A DNA stretch of 9,154 bases from a virus. Taxonomy: Duplodnaviria > Heunggongvirae > Uroviricota > Caudoviricetes. Shown piece after piece: positions 34 to 8,489 of this stretch. Location: IMG/VR virus record IMGVR_UViG_2695420871_000007. One strand, given 5' to 3'. The number at the start of each line of letters is the position of its first letter. The first letter of the stretch is position 1. The notes under the pieces were generated by a model, which was not told where the DNA came from, searched no databases, and worked only from the letters and a program-made list of their open reading frames with translations. The translations under genes were made by a program, and so were the position numbers.

Positions 34-366
34 TTAGCGGGCATGAAAATGGCAAATAACGGTCAAACATCGTGGCGTTGACAGAGAAACACGATCCACC
101 CAGAATGTCTCACCATTAATGGTCAGCGTGTCACCACGCCGCACGGCACGAACCGTATCCGTCCGCACAAATAATGACGGGCTGCTTCCTTCAATACGGA
201 CCCCGCTACCGGCAAACCCCAGCGACTCCGGATCGTCAAAAACCCCCTGAACTTCGCTGCCACACTGTGCCCCCGAGGTGAACTGCGCACAGAGCCCCAT
301 CACTTCAACAATCGTTCTGTCCACCCCGGCAAGGGCAGCATCAAAGGAATTCTCAAAATCATGCAT
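34..366 (-). CDS. FII: Head-tail joining protein, lambda gpFII-like
   Basis: 110-aa ORF from the track. From recollection it aligns with lambda FII over most of its length, e.g. shared blocks GVFDDPE, GVR(I/V)EGSSPSLFVRTD and RRGDTLTI followed by FWVDRVS. The start codon overlaps the FI stop by 8 nt, the expected position after FI. Confidence 0.85.
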   Translation of the reverse strand: MHDFENSFDAALAGVDRTIVEVMGLCAQFTSGAQCGSEVQGVFDDPESLGFAGSGVRIEGSSPSLFVRTDTVRAVRRGDTLTINGETFWVDRVSLSTPRCLTVICHFHAR

Positions 367-727
367 AAACGGCCATTCCGCTCCTGACCATGTCTTTTGC
401 CACTGAGGGGGGCATCAGAATTACTCTGCCAGCATCAACATGCTCAACAGGCTCACCTGTTTCATCGTCAACACCGCACAGGTAAAAACACTTCAGAAGC
501 CTGATACGTTCCAGAATACCAACGTCATCCTCACCGGTGTGCCTGCATGCCTGCTCATGAACGGTATCATCAACATCTGCGATTTCATTTTCCGAGGCGC
601 AAACCTCCTCTTCCCACTCTGCCACACGCTGTGCGATATCCGCAGCACTCCCCGACATATCCGCCTCGCGCCCCAGCAGACCAGCCAGTTCACGAAGACG
701 TTTCTGATTTTCTTCTTTTGTTGCCAT
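359..727 (-). CDS. FI: DNA-packaging / head assembly protein, lambda gpFI-like; start moved to the internal ATG at 727
   Basis: The track ORF runs 359..775, but the lambda FI-like sequence begins at Met17 (MATKEENQKRLRELAG vs lambda MTKDELIARLRSLGE). That ATG (727..725) is preceded by a GGGAG Shine-Dalgarno-like motif. The longer start would run through the upstream hairpin and abut the E stop codon. Confidence 0.72.
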   Translation of the reverse strand: MATKEENQKRLRELAGLLGREADMSGSAADIAQRVAEWEEEVCASENEIADVDDTVHEQACRHTGEDDVGILERIRLLKCFYLCGVDDETGEPVEHVDAGRVILMPPSVAKDMVRSGMAVYA

Positions 728-741
728 ATCCAGCTCCCTGT

Positions 742-770
742 GAAAAAAACACGGGGGCATTTCGCCCCCG
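742..770 (-). terminator. Intrinsic-terminator-like hairpin plus U-tract between E and FI
   Basis: Minus-strand transcript reads CGGGGGC-GAAAU-GCCCCCG (7-bp all-GC stem at 764..770 and 752..758, 5-nt loop) followed directly by UGUUUUUUUC (751..742). It lies 8 nt after the E stop codon and just before the FI ribosome-binding site. Confidence 0.5.
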
Positions 771-778
771 CTCACGGA

Positions 779-1807
779 TTATTTCACCTGTACCACCACA
801 AACTCATCCGGATCCGGCAGCACCATCAGCGGCGCGGACTGCGTCATGGTGAATTCACAGGACGGATCGCCCACGGTCAGCCAGTGTTTCGGGTAACGGG
901 AAGAAGCCACCACTCCTTCAGACAACGCCTGTGCATCCTTAATGGCTCCATAGCAACGAATCCCCTCTGCCGCCGTATTCCCCAGCACCAGCGTGCCCTC
1001 CGGCAGATAACGTTTTTCGGTACCGTCCTCTGCCACATAAGACGTTTTCGCTACCACAATAGCCAGATCGCCGTAATACCCCTTGAAGGATACCACTGCG
1101 CCCAGATCTTTCACTGCCGTTTCGAGTTGTGAATTTGAACCGCGACGGGTATCCAGTTTTTCGCGGAAAAGCTTAAAGCCATTCAGCAGACGCCAGACGG
1201 TACCGTCCATAATGGCAATATTCACAAGACCACTGGCCTGATCACAGAAAAGGTCGATATCATATGTCGGGTCGAACGTGTCACGATCCTGTTTTGACCA
1301 CTCCTTACCGCTACCCTGTATGATGTTATTCTTCGTCGATCGGCCAAAATCGACTTCAATTTTCTCGAACTGGTCTCCTTCCATCGTATATTTGCCATAC
1401 AGCACGGCATTCACCGCCTGCATTTCTTCCACCTGCACAATAGCGTGCTCTTCCTGTTTGAGGTTATCAGTGATGATACGCAGACGACGGTAGGCCGGGT
1501 CGTTCAGCTGAGCCGGATCTTCACCGGGAAGGCGTTCAACCGCCTGCTGGTAATTAAATTCGTGTTTCGGCTTGACGTAGCCCGGACGTAACACGCGGGT
1601 TTCACCCCCACGATGACGCAGCACTTTTCCTTCAACGACCGGGGAGACATAGGCCGCCACCGGCGTTTTTCCGGTAATTTTGTCCAGCATCACCTCTTCG
1701 GTGTGGAAATTCACCGTACGGCGGAAAAACAGTTCCAGAAACAGCGCACGAAATTTAACTTTTTGTTCGGTATAACCGAGTAACTGGCGGGTCGTAAACA
1801 ATCCCAT
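779..1807 (-). CDS. E: Major capsid protein, lambda gpE-like
   Basis: 342-aa ORF, near-collinear with lambda E (341 aa) as I recall it. Long shared blocks include PGYVKPKHE, DPAYRR, AIVQVEEMQAV, KGKYTM, EKLDTRRGSNS(Q/E)LETAVKDLG, DPDEFV. An AAGGA Shine-Dalgarno motif sits about 9 nt upstream of the ATG. Confidence 0.93.
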   Translation of the reverse strand: MGLFTTRQLLGYTEQKVKFRALFLELFFRRTVNFHTEEVMLDKITGKTPVAAYVSPVVEGKVLRHRGGETRVLRPGYVKPKHEFNYQQAVERLPGEDPAQLNDPAYRRLRIITDNLKQEEHAIVQVEEMQAVNAVLYGKYTMEGDQFEKIEVDFGRSTKNNIIQGSGKEWSKQDRDTFDPTYDIDLFCDQASGLVNIAIMDGTVWRLLNGFKLFREKLDTRRGSNSQLETAVKDLGAVVSFKGYYGDLAIVVAKTSYVAEDGTEKRYLPEGTLVLGNTAAEGIRCYGAIKDAQALSEGVVASSRYPKHWLTVGDPSCEFTMTQSAPLMVLPDPDEFVVVQVK

Positions 1808-1835: not shown

Positions 1836-1857
1836 TCAGGCCACCATGGTGGCCTGA
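1836..1857 (-). other. 22-bp perfect palindrome (GC-rich hairpin) in the D-E intergenic spacer
   Basis: tcaggccacca|tggtggcctga is a perfect inverted repeat. In RNA it gives a 9-bp stem with a CAUG loop, 8 nt after the D stop and ahead of the E ribosome-binding site. No strong U-tract follows, so it is not a canonical terminator. Confidence 0.4.
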
Positions 1858-1864
1858 TAACGTG

Positions 1865-2212
1865 TTACGGCAGAGCCGCGTGACTCAGGGCTGTGCCGGC
1901 AAAGGCATTTGCCTTTTTGTGTTCATCCACACTGTCAGGCCAGCGGATTGCCTCCGTCGCAAAGGTCCCCGACTTGTAATAGGTCAGCACCGTCTCTGTG
2001 CCTTCAAGCGGCAGTACCAGTATGCCAACCGCACTACCGGCTTTCTGTCCATCCCAGACCACCAGTTTCCCGGTGGCTTCATCCAGCATCAGGGGCGTCA
2101 GAGCCGGTGTTGCAGAAGAAATCCCGCTGCTGCCTGTGGCGGTATGAGCCGGATCATTACCAGCAAAAATACGTACTTCCGCACGCTGTTCAGTGATGGT
2201 TTTCGTCACCAT
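1865..2212 (-). CDS. D: Head decoration protein, lambda gpD-like
   Basis: 115-aa ORF. Recalled lambda D shares DPAHTAT, PA(L/M)TPLMLD, KLV(V/A)WDG, AAVGIL, YKSGTF and AFAGTA blocks. It sits between C and E as in lambda. A GAGG motif lies about 10 nt upstream of the ATG. Confidence 0.9.
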   Translation of the reverse strand: MVTKTITEQRAEVRIFAGNDPAHTATGSSGISSATPALTPLMLDEATGKLVVWDGQKAGSAVGILVLPLEGTETVLTYYKSGTFATEAIRWPDSVDEHKKANAFAGTALSHAALP

Positions 2213-2248: not shown

Positions 2249-2851
2249 TCATGGCATGGCCATGAGCATTTTCACGTCCGCATCACCGTCTGCTGACGTC
2301 TGTGACACGCCACCCCGCACCGCTGCCGGTGAATGATTCGCCATGAAATGTTCAAACAGGGCGGTTGTGGATGCAGAGACCGGTTCGGCCTTACCTGATC
2401 CCGCAGCCAGCACAGCCCGGGCGTTCTCCACGGTCATTCCCGGGCAGGCCGCCAGTTTTTCAGCCTGCGCTTCTGCCCCTTTTGCCTCATCCAGGGCCAT
2501 GATCTGATCACGAAGTGAGGGCCCGGCATCCGCCAGTGGTGCAGCCGCCAGGATCGGGCGTGCTTTTTCCACCGTCATCTCCGGCATCGCCGCCAGCGTT
2601 GCCGCCAGTTGTTCACGACCTTTCGCTTCTTCACACGCCATAATGCGATCGGCTTCACTCTGCGCGGATGCCACCGGCTGCTGTGGTGCCGCCGCGGCCA
2701 GAATCGCCCGGGCCTGTTCAATGCTCATGCCCTGTTGTCCTGCCAGCATCGTGGCAAGCTGTTCACGTCCTTTCGCTTCCTGACACGTCAGGATCCCCAT
2801 CACTCGCTGGTTCTCCTGCGCGGCAGCTTCCGTTGCAGTTAATTGCGGCAT
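2249..2851 (-). CDS. Nu3: Nested in-frame scaffolding protein, lambda Nu3-like, initiated inside C
   Basis: An in-frame ATG at 2851..2849 is preceded by a perfect AGGAGG Shine-Dalgarno motif with a 4-nt spacer, inside the C reading frame. The position corresponds to the lambda Nu3 start (ours GGTMPQLTAT vs lambda GGRMTKETQST). The 200-aa product carries the scaffold motif RxMGIL..EA.GRE..GMT...AR.ILAAA seen in lambda Nu3. Confidence 0.6.
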   Translation of the reverse strand: MPQLTATEAAAQENQRVMGILTCQEAKGREQLATMLAGQQGMSIEQARAILAAAAPQQPVASAQSEADRIMACEEAKGREQLAATLAAMPEMTVEKARPILAAAPLADAGPSLRDQIMALDEAKGAEAQAEKLAACPGMTVENARAVLAAGSGKAEPVSASTTALFEHFMANHSPAAVRGGVSQTSADGDADVKMLMAMP

Positions 2852-3754
2852 AGTGCCTCCTGTATCATGAGTGTTCAGCGCCGCAGCCATCACGCTGATG
2901 GCATCCGACGCATTGATTAATTCATCCGCCAGCCCGGCCTCAATGCCGGACTGACCTTCAAAAACGGCGGCCTCTGTTCCCGTGACCGCATCCACAGACA
3001 ACCCGGTATACATCGCCACTTTTTCGGCAAACATCCGGTGCGCCGCATCAATCCGCTGCTGCATATCCTGGCGAACCTCTGCCGGCAACGCTTCAAACTG
3101 ATTGCCATCCACCTTGTGCGCCCCGGCATAAATCAGCGTGATATCCACACCGGCCTGCGCCAGATGACCGGCATAGCTGACATGGCTCATCATCACGCCA
3201 ATGGAGCCGATACGGGATGTCTGGGTAACCAGCCGTCGGGAGCAGGCCGACGCCAGCAGCATGGCTGCAGAACAGGCCGTGTCATTGCACAGTGCCCAGA
3301 CCGGCTTCTGCTGACGGAGGCGGTAAATCATGTCAGCGCAGTCAAACGCGCCGGCGGCCTGCCCGCCCGGACTGTCAATGTCCAGCAGTACGCCCCGCAC
3401 CTGGCTATCTGCCATTGCCTGCTGAAGACAGGCGACAATGCCGTCATAGCCTGTCATTCCGGAAAATGGCCGCATACCGCCCAGCCGGTGCACCAGCGTG
3501 CCGGTCACCGGCAGTACAGCAATACCGTTCACCACCCGGTAAACACGGGCCGGTCGTTTACCTCCGGCCATGTACTCGTCCGTTTCAGCCAGCATTCCGG
3601 GAGCATCAAGCTGTACCTGTTGTTGTGGTACCGAAAGACTTGCTGCCCCCATCTCGCGCCCGAGCGCGCAAAAGAAAACCCGCGCATAGGCGGGCTCCAG
3701 AAGCAGCGGTTCATTGAATGCTGCGGCAATAATGTGTGAAAGATTACGTCTCAC
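2249..3754 (-). CDS. C: Prohead protease / minor capsid protein, lambda gpC-like (S49/ClpP-type N-terminal domain fused to a scaffold-type C-terminal domain)
   Basis: 501-aa ORF. The N-terminal two thirds are collinear with recalled lambda C (AFNEPLLLEPAYARVFFCAL, MNGIAVLPV(T/S)GTLV, SGMTGY(D/N)GI, QQA block, GAFDCAD, KPVWAL, SRRLVTQT(S/A)R(I/T)GSIGVMM, ITLIY(A/S)G(A/S)HKVDGN, AYTGLSV, TEAAV). The C-terminal part is scaffold-like and longer than in lambda because of an internal triplication. Confidence 0.88.
   Translation of the reverse strand: MRRNLSHIIAAAFNEPLLLEPAYARVFFCALGREMGAASLSVPQQQVQLDAPGMLAETDEYMAGGKRPARVYRVVNGIAVLPVTGTLVHRLGGMRPFSGMTGYDGIVACLQQAMADSQVRGVLLDIDSPGGQAAGAFDCADMIYRLRQQKPVWALCNDTACSAAMLLASACSRRLVTQTSRIGSIGVMMSHVSYAGHLAQAGVDITLIYAGAHKVDGNQFEALPAEVRQDMQQRIDAAHRMFAEKVAMYTGLSVDAVTGTEAAVFEGQSGIEAGLADELINASDAISVMAAALNTHDTGGTMPQLTATEAAAQENQRVMGILTCQEAKGREQLATMLAGQQGMSIEQARAILAAAAPQQPVASAQSEADRIMACEEAKGREQLAATLAAMPEMTVEKARPILAAAPLADAGPSLRDQIMALDEAKGAEAQAEKLAACPGMTVENARAVLAAGSGKAEPVSASTTALFEHFMANHSPAAVRGGVSQTSADGDADVKMLMAMP
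2393..2806 (-). repeat. Three tandem in-frame copies of a roughly 40-47 aa scaffold motif within C/Nu3
   Basis: Protein repeats: RVMGILTCQEAKGREQLATMLAGQQGMSIEQARAILAAAAPQ; RIMACEEAKGREQLAATLAAMPEMTVEKARPILAAAPLADAG; QIMALDEAKGAEAQAEKLAACPGMTVENARAVLAAGSG. The first two are also visibly similar at DNA level (ctgttcacgtcctttcgcttc near 2760..2780 vs ttgttcacgacctttcgcttc near 2610..2630). Lambda Nu3, as I recall it, has one copy. Confidence 0.65.
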
Positions 3755-5336
3755 GTGGTGTTGTCTCCTCTTCCGGCCTGCGACTCTCCGCTATCTGCTG
3801 CTGATACGCCTGCGCTATCCACACCGGGCGTGAGAGTCCGGCTTTTTCCCGCTCTGCAGATTCCCTGACCTGCTGGCGGAAAATGTCCTGATAATCCTCG
3901 CCCATCAGCGCCAGCTCTTTCTCATACGTGCTCAGTCCGGCCTCAATGCGCATCACTGATTCCTGGACTTCCTTGAGCCCGTCAATGGCCATTCTTCCGG
4001 CACCAATCCACTCTGCCCGTGACCAGGCTGATCGCGCCTGATAAAAATCAAAACGAGCCCGTGGCGGACGAATAATCCCCCGAAGAAGTGCCTCTTCCAG
4101 CCAGCAGGAAAACATCTGCGTGGCCAGTCGGGCCGCAATAAATTTTCGCCGCCCCATAAAATAGCGCCACGACTCATTGGCGGAGGCGCGGGCACTTGAG
4201 TAACTGACCTTCGAGTAATCACGGGACAACTGTTCGTAGGAAACGCCAAGACCGGCGGCGATATACCGCAGCAGCGCCTGTTCAAGCGCCGAAAATCCAT
4301 TGTCTGAATCCTGCGCTGTCTGCAGTTTCAGATCATCACCAGGGAAAAGGTGCGGAATTTTGACACCGCCCAGCGTCACGTGATTCGTGTCATACCAGCT
4401 GGAGAACTTCTCCAGAATATTAATAAGCGGATTATCCTTCTGCCCCTGCGGCGCACCGGCGATATATTCAAAGGCCTTTTCGGTATCCAGTTCACTTTCA
4501 ATCGTCGCTGCATACATCGCCTTCACTATGGCCGACTGAAGCTGTGTTGCCTGCAGGGAATCGAGCATCTTCAGCCGTTCCATGACGCTGTAAAACTGAT
4601 TGGCCCCACGGGTCTGCCCGTCCTCCACCGGCTCGAAAATATGCAGCATGGCCGGACGCCCGGTGGGTAGTTCACGCGGGATCCGTTCCCATCGTCCACT
4701 CCCGGAGCGAGGAAAATCATCCTCACAGATATGGTACGCAACGGCACGGCCATATCGATCGACCTCCACACCGGCCCGCAGAAAACGGTTCCCGATACCG
4801 TGTCCTGGCGTGTCCACCCGTTTCGGACTCACGGCTTTAAAACGCGTACGGAATAACTGCGTGGTTTCCGTATCCCAGACCGGCTGCACAAAGATTTCGC
4901 CGTTAAACGCATGAACGCCCACACCTTCACGGATAAATTCCGTAAACGTGCGTTTCCCTTCCACGTCGATCTCACCAAACATCCCTTCTGCGTATTCTGA
5001 CCAGGCCGCCTCCACCTCATCGACAAAACTTTTTGCCGCGGTCTCCCGCATCCCCAGCCAGCGCCAGTTCGGACGGTAGCTGATAAGAAACATATGCCCG
5101 ACAATGTGATCCTTATGCAGGGCCACCGCATTGGCCGCTATCCCGTTATTGCGCACCAGATCATCTGCCCGGGCATTCCCCAGACGCAACGCGGGCAGCA
5201 GGGCCGCATCGGCACTCTGCGAGGGTGGCAACCACTCCGCCATTTGCCCGCCAAATCCTGCGCCGCCCCCGTTGTAGCTGAGGCTCTCCCGAAGCGGAAC
5301 GCCGTTCACATCAATCAGGACAGGCGTTCGTTTCAT
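3744..5336 (-). CDS. B: Portal protein, lambda gpB-like
   Basis: 530-aa ORF (lambda B is about 533 aa). Shared blocks with recalled lambda B include GNARADDLVRNNG, FEPVEDGQTRGAN(Q/V)FYSVME, KMLD(S/T)LQ, QLQSAIVKAMYAATIESELDT, LRYIAAGLGVSYEQLSR, ARASANESW, GRMAIDGLKEVQE, IEAGLSTYEKE. The start overlaps the W stop (ATGA). Confidence 0.93.
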   Translation of the reverse strand: MKRTPVLIDVNGVPLRESLSYNGGGAGFGGQMAEWLPPSQSADAALLPALRLGNARADDLVRNNGIAANAVALHKDHIVGHMFLISYRPNWRWLGMRETAAKSFVDEVEAAWSEYAEGMFGEIDVEGKRTFTEFIREGVGVHAFNGEIFVQPVWDTETTQLFRTRFKAVSPKRVDTPGHGIGNRFLRAGVEVDRYGRAVAYHICEDDFPRSGSGRWERIPRELPTGRPAMLHIFEPVEDGQTRGANQFYSVMERLKMLDSLQATQLQSAIVKAMYAATIESELDTEKAFEYIAGAPQGQKDNPLINILEKFSSWYDTNHVTLGGVKIPHLFPGDDLKLQTAQDSDNGFSALEQALLRYIAAGLGVSYEQLSRDYSKVSYSSARASANESWRYFMGRRKFIAARLATQMFSCWLEEALLRGIIRPPRARFDFYQARSAWSRAEWIGAGRMAIDGLKEVQESVMRIEAGLSTYEKELALMGEDYQDIFRQQVRESAEREKAGLSRPVWIAQAYQQQIAESRRPEEETTPRET

Positions 5337-5539
5337 AACCTCACTCCCAGCGGACGACGGCGACGCCGGGTTGTCCCCAGTACCGACTCCGCATCATTGA
5401 TCGCCCGGTTAAGCTCATCCAGAGAAGCCGCCGTATATTCAATTCTGCGACCATCTTTCTGGACAGACACCACCCGTTTACCGGTTAATAAATCAAGGCG
5501 CGCCTGACGCAGCGCCTGCAGTTCAGCGACTGTAACCAT
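5333..5539 (-). CDS. W: Head-tail connector / head completion protein, lambda gpW-like
   Basis: 68-aa ORF. It resembles recalled lambda W: L.TGKRV(V/A)(S/T)VQKDGRR(I/V)E(Y/F)TA.S. and the C-terminal RRRxxP(L/A)G. It sits between A and B as in lambda. Confidence 0.85.
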   Translation of the reverse strand: MVTVAELQALRQARLDLLTGKRVVSVQKDGRRIEYTAASLDELNRAINDAESVLGTTRRRRRPLGVRL

Positions 5540-7451
5540 TCACTCCTCCGGACAGCTTCGCTGCCAGTTCTTTAAGGGGTGGCCGGGTCGTCTCTTCTTC
5601 CCGGGATTTTGCCAGTACAGCCAGATCAAGCTGCCAGCGTTGCACGGACACACGTAATGCCGCGTAGGCATACACCAGGCAGTCCAGCGCTTCGTTACGC
5701 CGCTTTTTGTTATCCCACAGCAGACGCATCTTTCCTTTTTCCCACTTCTCCACAAGCTCTTCCGCCACCAGTTGCTGCGCCTCTGTCTGCGAAAAAATCT
5801 CCGGCTCATCAGGAAAACGGATGGCATACGACGTGGCTTCATCCGCAGGCGTGGGATCGGCTTTCATACGGGCATAGAGAATTTCTTTTGCGGTGTCCGT
5901 CCCCACTTCGCACAGATACACGCCCCGCTGATTGCGGGTTTTTGGCATGGTGATCACCGGCTTGCCATAAACAGATGCACCTTTTACCGGCAGCACCCGG
6001 AAAACACCGTGTTTTTTTGACCTCTGATAAACGATTTCGCCATCGATCCCCCCGGTGTCCCAGCAGACACGGGAAATGGTCATCTCGGTGCCATCCGCAT
6101 GGCGGTATTTTTTGTTGATCGCCGCATCCACACGTAACAGCGTCTCTTCCTCATCAGGACGCCCCATAATGATGATTTTATCCACCAGAAAAGCTTCCTC
6201 TCCCGGTGCCCATCCCCAGACATACATCTCAAAACGGTTTCGCTGCGAGTCAATGCCCGCCGTCAGATAAACCACCCGGGCAGGTACCGCCGCCGTATAA
6301 TGCACGACCTTATCCATCAGCACCTGGTGATCAAGTTTTTCGCCCACGGCCTCTTCCCAGGTCTCGCCCAGCGTGGTGTTCACAAAGGTTTTCACGCCGT
6401 TGGGATCTTTCAGTGCATCCAGCCAGTCATAGACTATCTGTACCCAGGTGGTAAACGGACTGTACGCCGTCCAGATATGGAACGTGATGGAGCGCGGCGG
6501 CGGAATTTCATTACCCGCAGCGCTGAAAAACGTCAGACCGTCACGGGTCCACATGCCCGTGTTTTCACAGATCCACCGCCCGTTGCTCTGGTCCAGTTCA
6601 GACTGATGGATCACGCAGCCATGATGTTCACAGAGGTAGAAAACACTTTCGGGACTGTCCTTCTCCCATTTAAGCCCAAAAGGCGTGGACTCATCGCCAA
6701 ATTTCAGATACTGCTCCTCCCCACAGTGTGGGCAGGGCACATAAAAACGCATAAAATGCGCCGACTCGTTGGCCGCTTTTTCGATCTGGCAGGTGCCTTT
6801 GATTTTAGGCGTCGAGCCGCGAATGGATTTGGGCCATACAGAGCCCTCAATACGTTTATCCCCAAGCAGGGTTGGCGACCCCTCTTTTTCGACATCCGGT
6901 TCGAACGAGGAAAGTTCGTCATAGCAGACCACGTCCACGGATTTTTCACGGTAGTTTTTAGCGGCAGCCCCGCCCAGGCACCAGAAGCCCACGCCCGATG
7001 AAAAACGTTTCAGCGTGAGGGTATTATCACGATGTTTACGACCCAGCCATGGGGAAAGGTCTTTCAGGCATGGCACATCCCGAATCGTCGCCTCCACGTG
7101 AGACTTCATAAAATCTTCAGCGGCAGAATCCGTGGGCTGAAAAAGCAGACTGTTTCGTGATTTATGCTCAATAAAATACCCGACCACCCCCAGCAACATC
7201 TTTGTATAGCCAACACGGGCAGATTTAATCAGGTTAACCGTGCGAACCTGGTCGTTACCCATACAGTTCATAATGGCGACCTGGAACGGCAGCGTTTTCC
7301 ATTCTCCCTCACCATATGAAGATTCTTTAGGCAGATAATAATTTTGATCAGCCCATTCAACTGGCGTCACCGGCAATGCCCTTATCAGGGGCTGTAATGC
7401 TGTTGTGACAGCACTCATCATATTATTCAGTTGTTGCTCTGATATATTCAT
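5523..7451 (-). CDS. A: Terminase large subunit, lambda gpA-like; start moved to the internal ATG at 7451
   Basis: The track ORF is 661 aa from 7508, but lambda-type A begins MNIS..., which here is Met20 (ATG at 7451..7449), giving 642 aa versus about 641 in lambda. Extensive shared blocks: VEWAD.NYYLPKES, TLPFQ.AIMN.MG, SARVGY(T/S)KMLLGV, KKHRDNTLT.KRF, GFWCLGG.AAKNYREKSVDV, EGSPT(L/F)LGDKRIEGSVWPKSIRGSTPK, CPHCGEEQYLKFGD, FHIWTAYSPFTTWVQIV, KTFVNTTLGETWE, YLTAGIDSQ, CWDTGGID, KGASVYGKPV, WD.KKRRNEALDC.VYA.AALR.S.QRWQLDL. Confidence 0.93.
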   Translation of the reverse strand: MNISEQQLNNMMSAVTTALQPLIRALPVTPVEWADQNYYLPKESSYGEGEWKTLPFQVAIMNCMGNDQVRTVNLIKSARVGYTKMLLGVVGYFIEHKSRNSLLFQPTDSAAEDFMKSHVEATIRDVPCLKDLSPWLGRKHRDNTLTLKRFSSGVGFWCLGGAAAKNYREKSVDVVCYDELSSFEPDVEKEGSPTLLGDKRIEGSVWPKSIRGSTPKIKGTCQIEKAANESAHFMRFYVPCPHCGEEQYLKFGDESTPFGLKWEKDSPESVFYLCEHHGCVIHQSELDQSNGRWICENTGMWTRDGLTFFSAAGNEIPPPRSITFHIWTAYSPFTTWVQIVYDWLDALKDPNGVKTFVNTTLGETWEEAVGEKLDHQVLMDKVVHYTAAVPARVVYLTAGIDSQRNRFEMYVWGWAPGEEAFLVDKIIIMGRPDEEETLLRVDAAINKKYRHADGTEMTISRVCWDTGGIDGEIVYQRSKKHGVFRVLPVKGASVYGKPVITMPKTRNQRGVYLCEVGTDTAKEILYARMKADPTPADEATSYAIRFPDEPEIFSQTEAQQLVAEELVEKWEKGKMRLLWDNKKRRNEALDCLVYAYAALRVSVQRWQLDLAVLAKSREEETTRPPLKELAAKLSGGVNGYSR

Positions 7452-7932
7452 CGAGTAAATCCGGTAATTTATCCCCTGCCCGCGCACACTGATTTGCCCC
7501 CTTCGCAATAAGGGTTTTCAGATGGTCAAGATGGCGTGGTGTTAAATCAGGAAACTGTCGTTGCATGGATAAAGGGATGGAATCAAGCGTACTGGATAAC
7601 GCCATTGCCAGCTTGCTGAGGGCAAAAATACAGAACCCGGTGTCAATAAGTTTTCCTTTTGACACCTCATTTTTTAACTGCTGTGTAACAGCCTGTTCTG
7701 CTGTCAGTTCCCATCTGGCAATAAGCAATTTTTCCTCATAGTCGTCTTCGCTATCGCCATCAGGCACATCGTTTTTACTTCTTCTCAGATACGATATGTA
7801 AAAATCGCGCCAGGCATCCAGATCCAGTTGCCCTCGCTTATTCGATATCGGGGCACCCGGCAATTTCTGCAATCTGCGAAGCTGGCGATCGGTCAGACTT
7901 AAATGCCTGGCAACTTCAGTCTGCGTAGCCAC
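7423..7932 (-). CDS. Nu1: Terminase small subunit, lambda gpNu1-like (N-terminal HTH DNA-binding domain, C-terminal gpA-interaction region)
   Basis: 169-aa ORF with an apparent GTG start at 7932..7930; a GAGG motif lies 6 nt upstream. The C-terminal half matches recalled lambda Nu1 (T(G/A)FC.F.LS..A....S.LD..PLS.QR.FP.L..RH.D.LK and ...LL.EYI). The N-terminal part diverges but keeps the pattern of a DNA-binding helix-turn-helix. The 3' end overlaps the A start by about 29 nt, as in lambda. Confidence 0.85.
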   Translation of the reverse strand: MATQTEVARHLSLTDRQLRRLQKLPGAPISNKRGQLDLDAWRDFYISYLRRSKNDVPDGDSEDDYEEKLLIARWELTAEQAVTQQLKNEVSKGKLIDTGFCIFALSKLAMALSSTLDSIPLSMQRQFPDLTPRHLDHLKTLIAKGANQCARAGDKLPDLLDEYIRATTE

Positions 7933-8303: not shown

Positions 8304-8489
8304 ATGTCATCAAAGAACAGAACCCGCAGAACAACAACCCGCAACATCCGATTTCCAAACCAGATGATTGAACAAATTAACATCGCTCTTGATCTGAAAG
8401 GTTCAGGAAACTTTTCAGCGTGGGTTATTGAAGCCTGCAGAAGAAGGCTGTCAACAGAGAGTTCGGGTATGAATTACATAATTAAGTAA
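8304..8489 (+). CDS. Small basic ribbon-helix-helix-like protein (61 aa), possibly of the YlcI/YnfO type found next to nohD/nohA in E. coli cryptic prophages; likely DNA-binding accessory (moron) gene
   Basis: The ORF has a GGGGAA Shine-Dalgarno-like motif 5 nt upstream of the ATG. After a basic N-terminal tail (KNRTRRTTTR) comes IRFPNQMIEQINIALDL....GNFSAWVIEACRRRL, the strand-helix-helix pattern of Arc/CopG-type repressors. Its position next to cos and Nu1, on the opposite strand to the late genes, matches where ylcI and ynfO lie in DLP12 and Qin. Family assignment is from memory only. Confidence 0.6.
   Translation: MSSKNRTRRTTTRNIRFPNQMIEQINIALDLKGSGNFSAWVIEACRRRLSTESSGMNYIIK

Follow-up and report, generated by a model that had tools for sequence, protein, structure and literature searches.

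Three tandem modules in the scaffold region of a phage 21-type prohead protease gene correspond to the annotated Tri boxes of phage 21 and are old

Introduction

In bacteriophage lambda, the scaffold protein Nu3 has E, C, B and Nu3 itself as interaction partners; the interaction with E was seen in two-hybrid assays that did not map it to the module described below (PMC3224144). Nu3 is needed for incorporation of the portal protein (B) and is degraded by C (PMC3224144). Helical or helix-turn-helix motifs of the scaffolds of P22, SPP1, phi29 and 80alpha direct assembly, and a helix-turn-helix at the C-terminus of the P22 scaffold is its coat-binding domain (PMC11565965).

The closest described system is that of phage 21. 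A tblastn search of a phage collection with the C-terminal 200 residues of the protein studied here led to GenBank record M81255.1, “Bacteriophage 21 head gene operon”, whose features include gene 5 (501 aa) and, nested in it with a separate RBS, gene 6 (200 aa); gp5 is a head-tail preconnector that contains the scaffold gp6. The same record carries three repeat_region features, “Tri1 box”, “Tri box” and “Tri3 box”, with the note “function unknown; putative”. Full-text literature searches returned no paper describing the Tri boxes.

Here we analyse a 9,154-nt stretch of phage DNA (“the window”), for which a first-pass annotation had claimed that a C/Nu3-type protease-scaffold gene carries three in-frame copies of a motif present once in lambda Nu3, and that they arose by a fairly recent tandem duplication.

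Results

Gene block and identity of the repeat-bearing gene

The window is a lambda-type head-gene block with all head genes on the minus strand (Table 1). The gene carrying the repeats is flanked by the lambda-family portal gene on one side and by the D-like and E-like genes on the other, as in the phage 21-type gp5/gp6 arrangement, and shares 11 nt with the portal gene's end. As it contains a Peptidase_S49 domain and is covered end to end by phrog_53, “head maturation protease” (3e-227), its 501-aa product is a C/Nu3 homologue, in agreement with the first-pass annotation. The SppA structures 3rst and 4kwb match residues 77-289 (3e-16), and the segment CSA..LLASA aligns with its counterpart in lambda C; the Ser in this segment would be the catalytic residue, in line with the lambda gpC literature. 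An identical 501-aa protein is already recorded as an S49 family peptidase of Shigella sonnei.

Table 1. Features of the window, in order of position
Feature	Position (nt)	Strand	Remarks
FII-like gene	34-366	-	
FI-like gene	359-775	-	
Major capsid protein E-like gene	779-1807	-	
Decoration protein D-like gene	1865-2212	-	
Prohead protease/scaffold gene (phage 21 gene 5, lambda C homologue)	2249..3754	-	501 aa, GTG start
Nested in-frame scaffold gene (phage 21 gene 6, Nu3 analogue)	2249..2851	-	M302 to stop, 200 aa
C-terminal tail, aa 461-501 plus stop	2249..2374	-	predicted helix TALFEHFMANHS, then disordered end ...MLMAMP
R3, aa 414-460	2375-2515	-	contains “Tri3 box” equivalent 2390-2503
R2, aa 366-413	2516-2659	-	contains “Tri box” equivalent 2534-2644
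R1, aa 313-365	2660-2818	-	contains phage 21 “Tri1 box” equivalent 2681-2784
Shine-Dalgarno AGGAGG	2856..2861	-	4 nt upstream of ATG 2849-2851 (M302)
S49 serine-peptidase domain, aa 146-293	2876..3319	-	Pfam PF01343 Peptidase_S49, 1.5e-35
Lambda-family portal gene	3744-5336	-	
gpW gene	5333-5539	-	
Terminase large subunit (A) gene	5523-7508	-	
Nu1 gene	7423-7932	-	

Two further elements of the window were observed outside this gene. A hairpin with a 9-bp perfect stem, TCAGGCCACCATGGTGGCCTGA, lies at 1836-1857 (minus strand), where 56 nt separate the D-like from the E-like gene, and is followed by CTGATTTCTG, a poor T-run; the N15 record annotates a putative terminator at the matching position. 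This hairpin may set the ratio of D to E expression, as an attenuator or an RNA-stability element. Past Nu1, where the DNA is AT-rich, an ORF of 61 aa with a DUF3950 domain (9e-19) occupies 8304-8489 on the plus strand, opposite to the head genes, and the cos site presumably lies nearby.

Three units with strong protein and weak DNA similarity

The three in-frame repeats had been placed at 2393..2806, which corresponds to residues 317-454 of the ORF, and they are borne out: residues 313-460 form three tandem units of 47-53 aa (R1-R3). Pairwise local BLOSUM62 scores between the units range from 83 to 109, where shuffled sequences average about 25 (sd about 5); this gives z = 12-17, and none of 2000 shuffles reached the observed score. 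The unit profile matches the 501-aa protein exactly three times (iE 1e-27 to 3e-30), and the lambda Nu3 PHROG profile, phrog_8940, matches the repeat region in three stretches. R3 is the most divergent unit and has GAE in place of GRE, with loss of the conserved Arg. No Pfam or NCBIfam model lies over the repeat region, which PHROG profiles alone cover.

The units are 52-64% identical in amino acid sequence, while third-codon positions are near random (12-14 of 33 identical) and the codon is shared at only about half of the residues that are identical between units. Over 99-nt cores, DNA identity is 68% for R1/R2, 63% for R2/R3 and 58% for R1/R3, compared with an in-frame background of 28 +/- 5%. 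A DNA repeat search of the window gave 13-17-nt seeds only, and Tandem Repeats Finder (TRF) detected no DNA array in it. The repeat is thus visible at the protein level only, its DNA similarity being weak. The earlier statement that the first two copies are still recognisably similar as DNA holds for one stretch only, GAAGCGAAAGG(A/T)CGTGAACA, in which R1 and R2 agree at 20 of 21 nt.

These observations also bear on whether the repeat is an element of the DNA (a site bound by protein, a recombination signal or a regulatory repeat) rather than a protein feature. GenBank does draw the Tri boxes on the DNA, as a “repeat_region”. However, conservation lies in the amino acids and not in the near-random third positions, an Rfam scan of the whole window gave no matches, and the region contains no promoter-like sites, so that we consider a DNA-level element exceedingly improbable.

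The repeats are the Tri boxes of a very common prophage gene

The Tri box coordinates of M81255.1 transfer one-to-one onto the window gene, within 2390-2784. By this correspondence, the three repeats are the Tri boxes already annotated in phage 21, and the observation is not new. Gene 5 of phage 21 has the same length as the window gene (1506 nt, 501 aa) and is collinear with it without indels, at 96.5% nucleotide identity and with 482 of 501 residues identical (96%). The two share the internal RBS and ATG, the 200-aa nested product and the flanking portal, decoration and capsid genes. They differ by point substitutions only, which change 19 of 501 residues, such as K/N in the EEAKGRE motif of R2 and AAAPL versus AASPQ at the close of R2.

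Of 5426 complete E. coli genomes, 2032 have a match to the gene, which is at least 80% complete in 1866; its length is exactly 1506 nt in 27 of 30 evenly sampled records. The window gene is an ordinary copy of a known, very common prophage gene. All 20 phage-collection records with at least 80% of the scaffold region match it over about 576-600 nt, the unit count of three being profile-confirmed among them for phage 21, D2 and Gifsy-1.

A nested scaffold gene with a conserved start signal

The scaffold predicted to start at M302 has a mass of 20.5 kDa and a pI of 4.8 and contains all three repeats plus the tail. As a sequence signal, the M302 start with its RBS is identical to the annotated gene 6 start in M81255.1. 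The same GG-x-M / AGGAGG-N4-ATG signal marks the scaffold start of N15 and phi80 (annotated gene 6), and it is also present in lambda, at M309 of C. Since the internal start lies within gene 5, the protease gp5 and the scaffold gp6 would therefore both carry the three modules.

In lambda, the M309 ATG is at 5342-5344 of the NC_001416 record (2843-2845 of our lambda locus) and would give a product of 131 aa and 13.4 kDa, whereas RefSeq and J02459 start nu3 at M239 (201 aa), with only a weak GGAG 15 nt upstream. The conservation of the Shine-Dalgarno-ATG pair at M309 suggests that the RefSeq nu3 start may be placed too far upstream. Purified gpNu3 is said to be about 13 kDa.

One to five modules among close relatives

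Lambda C (439 aa)/Nu3 resembles the window gene in its S49 protease domain (about 53% amino acid identity over residues 3-344), its gene position, its nested-scaffold arrangement, the Shine-Dalgarno-ATG at GG-x-M and the module motif. It has one module where the window gene has three, as the profile count on lambda C from NC_001416 confirms for the earlier claim, and its Ser/Thr/Ala/acidic linker before the module is 36 residues longer. The C-terminal tails (TALFEHFM...MLMAMP in the window, TALDRLM...LLNTPV in lambda) look alike by eye in an unscored comparison, so that the two additional units appear to sit after lambda's unit and ahead of the tail. N15, phi80, 2B8 and the Aeromonas phage phiARM81ld also have one unit only by the unit profile.

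The gpC homologue of the Salmonella phage Gifsy-1 (STM2605, 498 aa) has three modules in the same order as the window and a GGTMP internal start context. It is 56% identical to the window protein over the scaffold region, with saturated dS, and its R3 retains the canonical GRE.

A sister prophage lineage of E. coli shares the gene, the head-gene order and the module with the window; its modules number five or four and are near-identical to each other. STEC313 (NZ_CP041433.1, L012 1802-3556) encodes 584 aa with five modules, and CEA224S (NZ_CP166080.1, L013 1940-3556) 538 aa with four. Over 35-aa cores, the modules of this lineage are 80-100% identical to each other, and their DNA forms an array with a period of 138 nt, 4.7 copies and 88% matches; the near-identical units and the 138-nt DNA array indicate that the array was recently expanded or homogenised. 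The lineage was found in 101 of 5426 complete genomes and in none of the phage-collection records.

An earlier homologue search with the three-unit profile had returned 36 short fragments only, and an exhaustive HMM search of 1.84 billion representatives was used instead. This search found the module (E <= 0.001) in 435 proteins, each standing for a 50%-identity cluster. In most of them, a single copy ends up about 40-90 residues short of the C-terminus of a 420-550-aa protein, or the protein or fragment has 100-200 aa; a minority have two or three copies, among them two-copy, stand-alone scaffolds of about 200 aa. The consensus of 163 instances is dRIlaCeEAKGREaLA..LA..PGMTVE.A[KR].iLAAAP, in which I3, E8, A9, G11, R12, A16, L19, A20, M25, A30, K/R31 and L34 are 85-95% conserved. 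A PDB sequence search with the profile gave no match at E <= 1, and no solved structure contains the module.

Age of the triplication and selection on it

Identities between units were computed over 35-aa cores. R1 of the window is 69% identical to R1 of Gifsy-1 and 74% to R1 of a 505-aa protein (P0158) from a different 50%-identity cluster, compared with 60% and 49% to R2 and R3 of the window itself. The closest relatives of R2 and R3 of the window are R2 (77%) and R3 (63%) of Gifsy-1, and the three units of P0158 are positional orthologues of R1-R3. The units differ from each other as much as they differ from the lambda unit. Because each unit is closer to the unit at the same position elsewhere and synonymous sites are saturated, the triplication is old. 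These comparisons indicate that it predates the split between the phage 21 and Gifsy-1 lineages. The first-pass annotation had set against its own proposal the case in which lambda and most relatives carry the same three repeats; lambda does not have three units, but the whole phage-21/Gifsy-1 clade does, so that the three units are ancestral there and not an expansion in the window prophage.

The claim of a fairly recent duplication therefore fails, in view of the near-random third positions and the positional orthologues in Gifsy-1 and P0158. A recent, lineage-specific event that would make the window prophage unusual might be argued from the single unit of lambda, N15, phi80, 2B8 and phiARM81ld, from the 20/21-nt stretch shared by R1 and R2, and from the occurrence of length variants. 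However, we think it very improbable, given the saturation of synonymous sites between the units, their unit-for-unit orthology with Gifsy-1 and P0158, the presence of the 1506-nt gene in phage 21 and about a third of complete E. coli genomes, and the lack of a DNA array in the TRF analysis.

For the repeats, comparison with Gifsy-1 gives a dN/dS of 0.11 (dS above 2) and comparison with phage 21 one of 0.155; the corresponding values for the protease domain are 0.155 and 0.125. These ratios indicate that the triplication has been kept by purifying selection on the protein.

Length variants and their distribution

The first-pass annotation had also called the repeat a hotspot for length variation. 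For the family this is qualitatively right: variants do occur, as rare two-unit hybrids, as a 57-nt deletion and as the sister lineage with four or five units, but the three-unit form is strongly predominant in the allele class of the window, in E. coli and Shigella prophages.

In the protein collection, alleles of 451 and 452 aa have two units and are R1xR2 hybrids on different allele backgrounds. The crossovers fall in at least three intervals: within EA(K/N)GREQLA; at QAR|PIL; and within ILAA(A)AP. At the DNA level, these alleles correspond to deletions of 150 and 147 nt at short identities between units. The junction of the 452-aa allele is present in one complete genome (O157:H7), and the other 776 matching records fit one flank only. 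An allele of 482 aa (P0015, UniRef B7N3L2_ECOLU; L014 301-1749) has an in-frame 57-nt deletion between CTGGCGGC direct repeats, equivalent to 2552-2608 of the window, and is without 19 residues of R2; it is clonal but widespread, with 3592 blocks in the assembly collection and 56 of 5426 complete genomes. These natural alleles, with a missing unit or a depleted R2, suggest that at least one unit may be dispensable, or that the prophages carrying them may be defective.

They are also what would favour the extra units being a redundant, functionally neutral, Ala-rich helical spacer kept by chance, together with the degeneration of R3 at GRE. Such a spacer is improbable, as dN/dS of the repeats (0.11-0.16) is as low as that of the protease domain, Gifsy-1 has retained all three units despite a dS above 2, and three units characterise all 20 phage-collection records with at least 80% of the scaffold region (profile-confirmed for phage 21, D2 and Gifsy-1).

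Several candidate expansions and counts were set aside. A 551-aa “4-repeat” allele (P0002) may be a scaffolding artefact, since an N falls on the very junction of its duplication, and a 657-aa form (P0001) is a single record. Counts of cluster representatives by length were rejected as estimates of allele frequency, since 501-aa forms collapse into one cluster and length variants remain singletons. The window protein belongs to a 90%-identity cluster of 18,706 members, in which S49 peptidases of 501 aa occur together with portal proteins of 530 aa and whose representative has 530 aa, so that cluster-based counts for this gene are unreliable.

Some short-read contigs consist wholly of near-identical repeat, namely a 237-nt contig (L011, GCA_014050415.1) and the sources of P0129 and P0130. 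The near-identical array probably breaks or collapses short-read assemblies, and copy numbers from draft genomes would therefore be unreliable. Chimeric ORFs were also observed: P0157 joins a DNA-methyltransferase-like N-terminus to a three-module scaffold, and P0084 and P0086 run to ...VLAAGSG, the end of R3, and then into unrelated sequence, Gly/His-rich in P0086. Prophage rearrangement or chimeric assembly, with a break where the repeat array ends, probably accounts for them.

Predicted structure of the units

The 200-aa product was modelled with AlphaFold2 from a shallow 16-row alignment. The predicted helices (H6-40/H44-54, H65-87/H94-102 and H113-134/H141-150) give one helix-turn-helix per unit, each consisting of a long helix, a turn of 3-6 residues and a helix of 9-11 residues, with disordered linkers; the tail has one further helix (160-173) and a disordered end. 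Model confidence is low, with a mean pLDDT of 55.7 and a pTM of 0.23, R1 reaching about 80 and the remainder 45-55. The structure prediction proposed for each repeat thus yields a helix-turn-helix in every case, at a confidence that is higher for R1 alone, and it weakly suggests that each unit folds in this way. A Foldseek search of the model against the PDB gave no meaningful match (best E = 5).

Discussion

Taken as a whole, this locus is best explained as the Tri-box segment of a phage 21-type head gene, an old triplication, with tethering as the proposed role of its units; we put the probability of this overall reading at roughly 85%.

The part of it that concerns function is held more loosely. 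The lambda Nu3 interactions and the helical motifs of other scaffolds lead us to propose, by analogy, that the modules are elements that tether scaffold and protease to the capsid shell and/or to each other, for which we see about an even chance. The protease gp5 and the internally started scaffold gp6 would share the three modules, which would tether both proteins to the inner face of the assembling shell of major capsid protein and/or to each other; and three copies would provide a higher valency than the single copy of lambda. Apart from this, the length of the array changes occasionally, by unequal crossing-over or slippage at short identities between units. The analysis shows homology, repetition, conservation and the nested-gene signal; the fold (weakly) and the binding role are inferred from these and from the literature. 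Literature searches found no experiments on module function, and the low confidence of the model, the lack of a fold match, the 41-aa tail behind R3, the Arg missing from R3 and the natural alleles that have lost a unit or most of R2 all count against the tethering proposal.

The coat-binding domain of the P22 scaffold can be likened to the module as a functional analogue only: both are short helix-turn-helix elements (modelled here for the module) in the C-terminal part of the protein, and the second helix of the module bears a conserved basic residue that may be compared with the P22 domain. No sequence or fold similarity between them is detectable by PDB sequence search or Foldseek. Unlike the P22 domain, the modules are tandem and fused to a protease, and they are not at the extreme C-terminus, as a 41-aa tail (aa 461-501) follows R3.

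The modules might instead serve in portal recruitment or scaffold oligomerisation, or be sites at which the gp5 protease, in removing the scaffold, recognises or cuts it, without binding coat protein. In lambda, Nu3 is needed for the portal protein (B) to be incorporated, undergoes degradation by C and also self-associates (PMC3224144), and the conserved EAKGRE and PGMT motifs could serve as recognition sites. The evidence pointing the other way is indirect: Nu3 and E interact in two-hybrid assays (PMC3224144), and conserved helical C-terminal scaffold elements of tailed phages are typically coat-binding (PMC11565965). On balance, we regard a role that excludes the coat as unlikely.

Returning to the tethering reading, whether the number of modules (1, 2, 3, 4 or 5) is itself an evolvable, functionally meaningful trait of lambda-family scaffolds, changed by unequal crossing-over, is a speculation that we put forward as doubtful.

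For the annotation of this DNA, the value of the finding is small, as the gene belongs to a standard phage 21-type head module whose repeat is already in GenBank. For genome comparison, a gene carried by about a third of E. coli genomes shows real length polymorphism because of the repeats, which probably also break short-read assemblies there. For the biology of these phages, the module is a well-defined family without a solved structure or a Pfam model, and its occurrence in one to five copies in close relatives offers a natural series on scaffold valency in procapsid assembly. If module number is a functional trait, it would tune the binding valency of scaffold and protease, and with it the efficiency or fidelity of assembly or the compatibility with capsid proteins, and would not be neutral noise.
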